Assembly: GCA_947573555.1 (NCBI GenBank)
Contig: CANPFO010000003.1
Coordinates: forward strand, 3,216-67,215
Reading direction: 5' to 3'
Source: an uncultured Clostridium sp.
Lineage (GTDB): Bacteria; Bacillota; Clostridia; TANB77; CAG-508
DNA: 64,000 nucleotides
A program made the position numbers and the translations under genes. Below the pieces are notes generated by a model that did no database searches, had not been told where the DNA came from, and worked only from the letters and a program-made list of their open reading frames with translations. Shown piece by piece: positions 25,844-27,373 of this stretch. Each line of letters opens with the position of its first letter. Position 1 is the first letter of the stretch.

Positions 25844-27373
25844 TTAACCTACGAGCACCACGCGGAAGCCATAATCGTAGTCCGGATAGCCGTTAGTACC
25901 ATTGAAGGCAAACGTACCAGCGTACGCACCACCGTCAAAGTAACCACCACGGATGAAAAACGGACTGCTCGAATACGGAAAGTTAGAGTAGTCGCTATTC
26001 CAGCTGCCGCTAGCACCACCTCCAGTTGTGGATGTCTCTAAAACTGCGTCTCCATATCCATATGTGCTTGTTTTTAAGCTATTATATCTGTTCCAGTTAT
26101 AAGTATTTCCATCATTTAATGTGTTATATGGGTATACTGTTGCATACTTTGTACTTAATGTTTTATATCCGTTTCCATCTGCTGTTGTTTTTGCTACATA
26201 TGAACTTCCATATGCTGATAAATTACTATTTCCATTTGTTATATATGCTGATACTCTTTCCCATACACATCCACTTAAGTCAAATACTCCACTTTTATTA
26301 TTTGTACTACTTGCATCTACTCCATTTGGTGTGCTACTTCCACTATATCCTGTTACTGCTCTTATATTTTTTGAACCATTAACATCTTTTGAATTTATTG
26401 TTACTTCTGTTCCATTTCTTCCATATTTACTTTGTGTTAAATATGCTACTGCTCCCCATTCACTATTTTTCATCATATGACTATCTGTTTGGCTGGCCTC
26501 TAATCCATAGAAATTTGTTGCCTTTGCGATCTCTTGGGCTATTGTGTAACTATCTCCTGTACTTATTACATTATACGCATATGTTAATGGCTTAAATACT
26601 GGATATGATAACTTTTGTTCTGCATATTTACTTGATGACAAATCTTGTGATAATGCATTTGTTGTATAGCTACTATTACAAGATGTATATTTTTTGTCTG
26701 AATATACTACTTCATCATTTCCATTTATTACTGTTGTTGCATCTGTTTCACTTGTTGTATTTGCTTGGAATCCTGCTGCATATTTTGCTACCCAAAATCC
26801 TGATATCTCTTTATCCCATTCTCCATTCATATAATTATTACTTCTTCCATCTCTAAATGATGGATGTATATATGTGTATTCACTATCTACTGTTGTTTTA
26901 CTTGTTTCTATAAATTTTACATCTATTGTTGTTCCTGTTATTTTGTACTCATATCTTGGTATCCATACCCAATAACTTCCATCTTCTGTTTTTGCATTTG
27001 CCCACTTTTGATTTTCATAATCATACCATTTATCTTGATTGTCTGTTGTTACTGTTACTTCTTTTCCAGTTTCGTCCCAATATATTCCTGTCATTCCTTT
27101 CATCAATTTTGGACTATTTACTTTTCCTGTCCAACTTCCATCAGCTATTATATCTCCTATTCCACTTACATATCCATCTATTTTGTTGGCATAGTCTCCT
27201 AATATCGAATTTTCTAATTCTTGTGATTTTTTTGACTCTTCTTCTGCTTTTTTTGCTTTTTCAAATAATCCACTTCCTGCTAATTGGCTTATTGATATTC
27301 CTGCTAATATTAATAATATTATTATTGTTATTACTAGCGCTACTAATGTTATACCTTTTTCTTTCTTTAACAT
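25844..27373 (-). CDS. prepilin-type N-terminal domain protein with C-terminal FGE-sulfatase/C-type-lectin-like domain
   Basis: N-terminus MLKKEKGITLVALVITIIILLILAGISI, though position +5 is Ala rather than Glu. Further motifs are NSEWGAVAYL, GVFDLSGCVWERV, and the ending FFIRGGYFDGGAYAGTFAFNGTNGYPDYDYGFRVVLVG. RBS AAGGAGGAG. Confidence 0.7.
   Translation of the reverse strand: MLKKEKGITLVALVITIIILLILAGISISQLAGSGLFEKAKKAEEESKKSQELENSILGDYANKIDGYVSGIGDIIADGSWTGKVNSPKLMKGMTGIYWDETGKEVTVTTDNQDKWYDYENQKWANAKTEDGSYWVWIPRYEYKITGTTIDVKFIETSKTTVDSEYTYIHPSFRDGRSNNYMNGEWDKEISGFWVAKYAAGFQANTTSETDATTVINGNDEVVYSDKKYTSCNSSYTTNALSQDLSSSKYAEQKLSYPVFKPLTYAYNVISTGDSYTIAQEIAKATNFYGLEASQTDSHMMKNSEWGAVAYLTQSKYGRNGTEVTINSKDVNGSKNIRAVTGYSGSSTPNGVDASSTNNKSGVFDLSGCVWERVSAYITNGNSNLSAYGSSYVAKTTADGNGYKTLSTKYATVYPYNTLNDGNTYNWNRYNSLKTSTYGYGDAVLETSTTGGGASGSWNSDYSNFPYSSSPFFIRGGYFDGGAYAGTFAFNGTNGYPDYDYGFRVVLVG

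Follow-up and report, generated by a model that had tools for sequence, protein, structure and literature searches.

A GC-rich, adenine-poor 3′ end of probable retroelement origin in a pilin-like surface-protein gene of an uncultured Clostridium

Introduction

Diversity-generating retroelements (DGRs) are densest in the human gut, where the best-studied cellular targets are the type V pilus adhesins of Bacteroides. The mechanism assumed in this work is modelled on that of the Bordetella phage BPP-1 (Mtd, bRT, Avd, and an initiation of mutagenic homing (IMH) site with a hairpin), in which RNA of a template repeat (TR) with AAY codons gives rise to an adenine-mutagenised cDNA that is swapped into the 3′-terminal variable region (VR) of a gene for a lectin-fold protein. 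A DGR survey (Wu et al. 2018, PMC5758913) describes MutS-like accessory genes, TR and reverse transcriptase (RT) on opposite strands, and non-adjacent or remote targets, which in non-phage DGRs can lie over 100 kb away from the RT. Here we analyse a 64-kb stretch of DNA from an uncultured Clostridium sp. (contig CANPFO010000003.1; hereafter the window), in which a minus-strand gene (25844-27373) encodes a pilin-like protein whose coding sequence ends in a tract (25847-25992) that, judged from its sequence and relatives, is very probably of DGR origin, whether or not this copy is still a live target.

Among described systems, the DGR of Treponema denticola (TvpA and up to seven remote targets; PMC5758913) is likewise chromosomal and serves scattered paralogous lectin-fold surface proteins from one template, with the VR at the extreme 3′ end of the open reading frame (ORF) and TR/VR differences at adenines only. 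In contrast to T. denticola, relatives of the locus studied here carry Avd and a MutS-like protein (architecture D of Wu et al.) instead of HRDC, and their targets begin with a type IV pilin-like N-terminus instead of a lipoprotein signal; the window VR moreover lacks the 3′ extension of its own family's proven targets, and neither a cognate TR nor a cognate RT was found for it in this work. BPP-1 differs in that its DGR is carried by a phage, has only one, adjacent target and keeps all its parts on the same strand, whereas in the present family an operon of RT, Avd and MutS-like genes converges on the TR and target. The 3′ element of this family (...GTGCT..AGCACTT and a short hairpin) is also unlike that of BPP-1, and the window copy has neither its second half nor the hairpin. 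In Bacteroides, DGRs act on the tip adhesins of type V pili, and some of them include an Msl accessory gene (bioRxiv 10.1101/2024.11.15.621889); these DGRs resemble the present system as elements of gut bacteria that diversify the C-terminal, lectin-like tip of a pilus-associated protein with Avd and Msl accessory genes, and differ from it in host (Bacteroidota versus Clostridia), in pilus type (type V versus a type IV pilin-like helix) and in arrangement (targets in the cassette versus a dispersed multigene family). A non-exhaustive literature search found no link between DGRs and type IV pilin-like proteins of Clostridia. The kind of system is already known, and it is met here in a large target family of gut Clostridia that has been little described.

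Results and discussion

A compositional break at the 3′ end of the gene

The target gene is an intact ORF for a secreted or surface protein of 509 aa, running on the minus strand from the ATG at 27373, which is preceded by an AGGAGG ribosome-binding site, to the TAA at 25844. Its product starts with a pilin-like N-terminus, continues through a beta-rich central region and closes with a lectin-like C-terminal domain, at the end of which lies the variable region. An earlier note on this DNA had reported a switch to GC-rich, adenine-poor codon usage over the last ~65 codons; the codon string and peptide quoted there are exact, and the shift, which begins at ~26045, takes GC and third-position adenine (A3) far beyond chance. 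Mean GC of the window is 0.276 (standard deviation 0.05 in 150-nt segments) and its maximum is 0.52 at 25861 (z = 4.9); the 12 segments with GC >= 0.45 all overlap 25847-26045, and there are none elsewhere in the 64 kb.

Within this tract we define the VR by homology to proven TRs as 146 nt or 49 codons (25847-25992, minus strand), co-linear with related DGR templates and starting at ACTACTCT. Its position at the extreme 3′ end and its adenine depletion are as the earlier note described: it comprises the last 49 codons, and A, which makes up 0.46 of the coding strand in the gene body, is down to 0.16 over the final 146 nt. In third codon positions, A accounts for 59% of the body and for 1/49 codons (2%) of the VR (binomial P = 8e-18), while GC3 rises from 14% to 55% and overall VR GC reaches 0.51. 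Upstream of it lies a GC-enriched lead-in (25993-26045, minus strand), with GC of 0.47-0.63 in the pair of 30-nt bins that precede ACTACTCT. This lead-in is not part of the TR-homologous tract, and an alignment with loci L084, L082 and L002 shows it to differ between paralogues through a 3-nt indel and ordinary substitutions; at proven DGR loci, too, the 30-60 nt ahead of the VR are enriched in GC.

DGR cassettes beside homologues in related Clostridia

The assignment of this tract to the VRs draws on homologues in related low-GC Clostridia in which the gene's own 3′ end is repeated downstream and followed by a convergent operon encoding MutS_I, bAvd/DivGenRetAVD and RVT_1 (Pfam/NCBIfam), the RT carrying SQxxAN and YMDD motifs. 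Such cassettes were found in GTDB genomes (L018, L066) and, through the RT, at L092, L094 and L095-L098. Mismatches between TR and VR fall at TR adenines in 16/17 cases at L018, 23/23 at L066, 25/26 at L092, 14/14 at L094 and 17/18 at L095, and the non-adenine mismatch, at most one per pair, is a T/C difference in the 3′ extension. The motif found at window position 25992, ACTACTCT, opens all five pairs (in the L094 VR it reads ACTGCTCT), and TRs of the cassette-bearing relatives are 146-160 nt long. The window VR shares with these DGR-adjacent homologues both the 5′ boundary of the repeat and the composition. At 36 VR sites, at least three of five related TRs have A; these sites take up 19 of the 23 adenines in the window VR, and the other 110 sites only four (Fisher p = 1.4e-10). 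A further locus, L026, lies on another contig of the L018 genome and is 91% identical to the L018 TR with 11/14 mismatches at adenines, as befits a non-adjacent target. The RT clade is widespread in related low-GC Clostridia (2,995 matches at E <= 1e-30), and the examined contigs always showed the order MutS_I-bAvd-RVT_1.

An abrupt composition boundary, together with the mosaic structure seen among paralogues (below), could also mean that the 3′ end was recombined in from a higher-GC organism and owes nothing to a retroelement, the alternative that the earlier note had offered. We consider this very unlikely. The same GC-rich, A-poor module occurs with TRs in homologues across many genomes of 26-30% GC, where TR GC is 0.44-0.49 and VR GC 0.49-0.61; with TRs and VRs near 50% GC in every such genome examined, no foreign donor is needed and the composition becomes a built-in property of the DGR family. 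Higher-GC DNA, on the other hand, yields only chance matches of 20-28 nt (soil, sediment and viral contigs of 47-67% GC), and a plain mosaic would explain neither the concentration of window-VR adenines at the A sites of related TRs nor the avoidance of third codon positions by allele differences. A template would have to avoid A wherever change is unwanted, especially at wobble positions, which would force codons rich in G, C and T upon an otherwise A-rich genome.

The cassette neighbourhood is itself conserved: at L092, L095-L098 and L018 it comprises a PRK-like kinase, SspH, a 111-aa ORF, MutS_I, Avd, RT, TR, the target, a helix-turn-helix (HTH) gene, DUF6809 and an aminoacyl-tRNA synthetase. 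This chromosomal setting argues for vertical, non-phage inheritance, and as no DNA or protein match was found in the phage collection, a phage origin is unsupported.

Several features of the cassettes deserve mention in their own right. The spacers between VR and TR (L018 1740-1962, L066 5257-5428, L092, L094, L095, and L002 2321-2477) contain non-coding elements conserved across species, CCCTTT(A/T)ATCGGCAC and AATACGGG, and three of them also hold a GNRA-loop hairpin of the form GGGTGC-GTAA/GTGA-GCACCC. The 3′ flank of the TR, CGATACACAAAGA, is conserved with the hairpin that follows it, and these spacer and flank elements are probably parts of the DGR RNA or of its promoter. At L037 (1-5380) an intact MutS-like/Avd/RT operon, its Avd above the NCBIfam DivGenRetAVD cut-off, stands beside a target homologue whose ORF reads on beyond the usual GFRVVLA end, with no TR detectable in the 5.4-kb contig. 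In one Bacilli genome (JAQVNR01), three paralogue VRs (L067, L075, L080) have 85-89% identity to one another, and each is followed straight after the stop codon by the common 3′ flank TAGTAAAAATAATTTCGGAGAAATTATT, which forms a 9-bp stem closed by a 4-nt loop. This resembles a DGR with several targets and a recognition hairpin of another kind, and, like L026, it speaks for non-adjacent targets in the family.

Variation at template adenines among alleles

Contigs from other samples allow the VR to be compared among strains. Two of them (L083, L084) carry near-identical genes with the same 3′ flank and terminator as the window; in L083 the VR is identical to that of the window and the gene body differs at 27 nt. 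Between the window and L084 there are 21 VR differences, 20 of them at codon positions 1-2, against a ratio of 43:40 in the gene body (p = 1.3e-4), and 19/21 fall at adenines of the L066 and L092 TRs (p ~1e-10). A third sequence, L110, represents a different locus, as its flank diverges right after the TAA, and its VR keeps the invariant scaffold including third codon positions. Taken together, the VRs of the window, L084 and L110 vary at 29/146 sites, 28 of which are at codon positions 1-2 (window positions 25984, 25975, 25974, 25969, 25966, 25954, 25948, 25942 and 25941 among them). The strain comparison proposed in the earlier note thus reveals polymorphism concentrated at adenine sites: 25/29 variable sites coincide with L092 TR adenines (p = 8e-13), the adenine positions being those of homologous rather than cognate TRs. 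Pairs of alleles diverge by 26-38% at sites of the TR-A type and by 1-3% at the remaining VR sites, compared with 3.5-6% across their gene bodies. The three VRs therefore appear to be adenine-mutagenised copies of one unseen template, which can be reconstructed as ACTACTCTAACTTTCCGAATTCGAGCAGTCCGTTCTTCATCCGTAGTGGTAACTTTGACAATGATACGTACGATGGTACGTTTGCCTTCAATAATACTAACGGCAATCCGGACTACAATAATGGCTTCCGCGTGGTGCTCGTAGGT, with 36 adenines and an Asn-rich translation, DYSNFPNSSSPFFIRSGNFDNDTYDGTFAFNNTNGNPDYNNGFRVVLVG.

The excess of position-1/2 changes in the C-terminal 49 codons would also be expected if ordinary diversifying selection acted on a lectin binding site with a local codon bias and no templated mutagenesis. 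Selection of this kind leaves unexplained, however, the near absence of synonymous third-position A documented above (1/49 versus 59%), the coincidence of variable sites with the adenines of related TRs and the linkage of the family to RT/Avd/TR cassettes, and we give it slightly less credence even than recombination from a higher-GC donor. A DGR-type VR accords both with the cassettes beside homologues and with alleles that differ at TR adenines.

The 3′ recognition element and the status of this copy

The chief obstacle to seeing the window gene as a target that is still diversified lies at its 3′ end. The block GGCTTCCGCGTGGTGCTCGTAGGTTAA (GFRVVLVG*; 25844-25870, minus strand) is identical in the window, L083, L084 and L110, even though the 3′ flank of L110 differs, and it is the only candidate for the 3′ homology or IMH, that is, the 3′ recognition element for cDNA integration. 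Our preferred reading, to which we give roughly even odds, is that the window gene serves as a live, non-adjacent target for a DGR outside the window and that this DGR would use just the 27-nt block as its 3′ recognition element. Such a remote target would imply a cognate DGR in this genome and a gene copy that serves as a retrohoming substrate.

A number of observations weigh against this. All six proven VRs (including L026), and L002 as well, run past the stop codon through AGCACTT (VR T / TR C) GA into a short GC-rich hairpin, and the proven TRs read ...AGCACTTCGATACACAA. The window has neither this extension, by which an IMH is shared with the TR, nor the GC-rich hairpin: similarity of its VR to other loci stops exactly at the stop codon, and GC drops to 0.20 right after it (...GTGCTCGTAG|GTTAATAAAG), so that an ending ...GTGCTCGTAGGTTAA with a flank of its own stands against ...GTGCTCGTAGCACTTTGA and a hairpin in the relatives. 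In CANRPI, the one genome for which the TR is known, paralogues that lack the extension are not current targets, having 64-77% identity to the TR with many non-A mismatches. The same VR is present in three assemblies with differing gene bodies (L083 and P0128 included), and its turnover is accordingly not fast. Recombination has also been at work, since P0128 is a mosaic in which an L001-like pre-VR segment is joined to the window VR, and L083 and L084 combine the 3′ flank of the window with other 5′ flanks; with paralogues so visibly mosaic, recombination could have delivered the cassette. Finally, no cognate TR was found in the window, nor in exact-pattern scans of GTDB genomes, JGI metagenomes and IMG/VR.

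These same observations, namely the missing extension and hairpin, the behaviour of the CANRPI paralogues, the mosaicism (to which a 934-nt upstream segment inverted between assemblies may be added) and the recurrence of one VR in three assemblies, would fit a cassette that was written by a DGR elsewhere and arrived by gene conversion or homologous recombination, either from a paralogue beside a DGR or from a different strain, or one whose DGR has since been lost; such a copy would be no retrohoming substrate and would vary only by exchange between paralogues. Further in its favour, L082 and L001 resemble the DGR-proximal locus, with the HTH gene upstream, but have no RT, while L002 has a TR fragment, a pattern suggesting that only some of the close relatives possess the DGR. 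We hold this account to be a serious possibility, though a less likely one than a live target. Three points count against it. Non-target paralogues have drifted to A3 values of 0.06-0.24, whereas the window VR shows no drift towards genome composition (A3 2%, GC 0.51) and stays within the range of proven active VRs. Three versions of a single template, each mutagenised afresh and independently, are present at two loci without the extension, an observation that a simply shorter 3′ element explains just as easily. A 3′ crossover, lastly, would need to fall within 27 nt of homology. A live target could be reconciled with its missing extension if, as may be the case, it uses a shorter 3′ recognition element belonging to an unseen TR.

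The earlier note had also pointed to a strong hairpin after the stop codon as a DGR-like trait. The hairpin is present (25781-25832, minus strand; an AT-rich stem of ~20 bp and an 8-nt loop running into a U7 tract) and strong (dG -23.9 kcal/mol, z = -6.9 against shuffles), but it is an ordinary intrinsic terminator and not diagnostic of a DGR. L110 has a VR derived from the same TR lineage but is followed by another terminator hairpin, which places the structure with the locus and not with the VR.

The inverted segment mentioned above covers ~930 nt upstream of a paralogue (L002 1-934 and L001 1-893 versus L082 1-934; 99-99.9% identity). It holds an HTH-regulator gene and is bounded by inverted copies (128-160 nt) of the gene's own 5′ end, and it represents either a real invertible or head-to-head arrangement of paralogues or an assembly ambiguity across the inverted repeat.

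Search for the cognate template and reverse transcriptase

The window was searched for DGR parts by a motif scan of its ORFs, by tblastn, and by blastn at word size 7 with the VR and the inferred TR as queries. No RT, Avd, MutS-like gene, second paralogue, TR-like repeat or TR-flank motif was found in the 64 kb, and the RT, Avd and MutS-like protein of L037 had no tblastn match (best E = 0.066), which bears out the original observation that the window holds neither an RT nor a second copy of the segment. The genes that flank the DGR of relatives (PRK, SspH, aminoacyl-tRNA synthetase, EF-P) likewise do not lie within it.

Beyond the window, the pattern CCGTTTTTCNTCCGTGGTGGT gave no match in GTDB genomes or IMG/VR; it was too strict, as it included a T private to the window (CCGTTTTTC) where relatives and the L002 TR have C (CCGTTCTTC). 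The corrected pattern CCGTTYTTC... gave no viral match and seven JGI matches, all rejected as chance (soil and sediment contigs of 47-67% GC, alike over only ~23 nt). A third pattern, GGCTTCCGCGTGGTGCTCGT, had no viral match, and a fourth, CGCTGGTNCGTTTGCCTTC, matched ten viral contigs of 50-65% GC over 27-28 nt, which were again set aside as chance.

Candidate templates from relatives fared no better. The TRs near the RT homologues P0143, P0155 and P0139 belong to good DGR cassettes and are 60-64% identical to the window VR, and are homologous, not cognate. The closest relative, L002 (92% protein identity), has a TR fragment 160 nt downstream, at 2478-2543 where the contig ends. This fragment equals the L002 VR except for one A-to-T change and has TGG, ATT and GAC codons where other TRs have AAY; it has the look of an adenine-poor template that may have degenerated or been converted by the VR. 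Many mismatches at non-adenine sites rule it out as the source of the window VR.

Proposed mechanism and significance

In the mechanism that we propose, the template would come from a DGR located outside the window in the same genome and organised as in relatives (MutS-like gene, Avd, RT, then the TR). A complex of RT and Avd would copy the template RNA into cDNA with misincorporation opposite template adenines, and the cDNA would then take the place of the gene's 3′ end, with the invariant block GGCTTCCGCGTGGTGCTCGTAGGT as its guide. The template would keep adenines only in AAY-type codons at ligand-contacting positions and avoid A elsewhere, above all at the wobble position; because of this avoidance outside AAY codons, the tract copied from it would be poor in A, rich in G, C and T, and conspicuous in an A-rich gene of 28% GC. 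The product would be a pilin-like, lectin-tipped surface protein, presumably an adhesin, with a diversifiable binding site, and would be one of several paralogues in each genome.

More boldly, in uncultured low-GC gut Clostridia a single chromosomal MutS-like/Avd/RT element might serve a dispersed multigene family of pilin-like lectins, possibly including copies such as this one with ~25 nt of 3′ homology and no dedicated hairpin, a scheme we think rather unlikely. If it were true, either retrohoming would need far less information in the target than the Bordetella model implies, or gene conversion would pass fresh cassettes to paralogues, giving a two-tier adhesin repertoire that is first written and then shuffled. 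The missing 3′ element raises the question of what marks a non-adjacent target for recognition, or whether diversity made by DGRs spreads from paralogue to paralogue through recombination. The locus indicates that uncultured gut or animal-associated Clostridia possess a very large, unannotated family of pilin-like lectins with ties to a conserved chromosomal DGR, many of the paralogues being located away from the element. In practical terms, the fall of wobble A from ~60% to ~2% offers a compositional signature by which targets of this sort can be recognised in AT-rich genomes if their RT lies on a different contig.

A large family of pilin-like proteins with a lectin-like C-terminus

Homologues of the target protein number more than 7,400, almost all from metagenome assemblies of uncultured Clostridia, with up to 12 paralogues per genome (12 loci in CANRPI, eight in WRFS01 and eight in CAKMVZ). 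A third homologue search added only an abundant subgroup of ~60% identity and no further diversity. No Pfam or NCBIfam domain covers the lectin part, and across the family the only Pfam hit is a sub-threshold N_methyl. The published TANB77 'pilin 938' cluster was considered and rejected as this family, as it is a Tad-type system and a different family.

The N-terminus (27284-27373, minus strand) resembles that of type IV pilins and pseudopilins, with a class-III-signal-like leader, MLKKEKG|ITLVALVITIIILLILAG, and a hydrophobic helix. The description as pilin-like that this gene had been given is upheld only at the level of profiles: through its N-terminal helix the family profile matches type IV pilins of solved structure (E = 4.6e-6 to 4e-4), and a distant member, L081 (GFTLIELL), passes TIGR02532. 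Against it, the Pfam N_methyl match of the target protein stays below the cut-off (E = 0.006; 16.5 versus 21.2 bits), and although the basic leader, the Gly and the helix are present, an Ala stands in place of Glu5. Among monoderms, modular type IV pilins such as PilB of Streptococcus sanguinis (PMC8179133) similarly fuse a pilin helix to a large C-terminal functional, adhesive module; PilB-type modules are not diversified by a retroelement, however, and the window protein differs in lacking Glu5 and in having no pilus assembly or prepilin peptidase gene among the window ORFs scanned. A prepilin peptidase gene (Peptidase_A24) does lie ~6 kb from the DGR target at L095.

The C-terminus had been assigned to an FGE-sulfatase/C-type-lectin fold. 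Profile comparison with PDB sequences gives weak support, with matches to TaqVP of Thermus aquaticus (5VF4, confirmed as a DGR variable protein; E = 1.4e-4), pFGE (1Y4J; E = 0.012) and PvdO (E = 0.5). A core of the form H.MKNSEWGAVAYL ... GV.DLSG.VWE aligns to TaqVP and pFGE (H.MKN.EW.AVA.L ... G..DL.G.VWE), and the RGG...GFR ending is typical of the FGE-type C-type-lectin fold. Neither the window protein nor any of 46 relatives matches Pfam FGE-sulfatase at E <= 1, and AlphaFold models are of low confidence, with a predicted local distance difference test (pLDDT) score of 42.5 for the full-length protein (46 sequences) and 36.5 for the C-terminal 350 aa (24 more diverse sequences). A lectin fold is thus weakly suggested by sequence similarity.

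Genomic setting

The window consists of chromosomal housekeeping DNA of a low-GC, spore-forming Firmicute, with rpoB, rpoC, SpoIIE, a penicillin-binding protein, MreB, PcrA, TatD, LemA and an ornate large extremophilic (OLE) RNA. A promoter-like site is found ~240 nt upstream of the start codon of the target gene (27610-27638, minus strand), made up of TTGAAA, a 17-nt spacer and TATAAT with an extended -10 TG; it is identified purely by its match to the consensus (11/12). The OLE RNA is full length (8499-9098, minus strand; 327.8 bits, E = 1e-92, model positions 1-616), with a 181-aa ORF just downstream (7851-8396), and its host apparently belongs to the uncultured gut or animal-associated low-GC Clostridia.

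A repeat of ~170-190 nt, 93-95% identical between copies, occurs in the window at 7231-7402 and 47755-47931 and also at L001 4313-4481. It matches no Rfam family at the gathering score, holds a promoter-like TATAAT and a short hairpin, and may be a shared promoter or leader module, every copy lying upstream of a different gene. One copy precedes the 1,624-aa SdrD_B/DUF11 surface-protein gene at 42680-47554, which is one of two adjacent giant surface-protein genes (1,398 and 1,624 aa; SdrD_B, DUF11 and CarboxypepD_reg repeats) that together occupy 38449-47554 on the minus strand, ~12 kb from the target gene.

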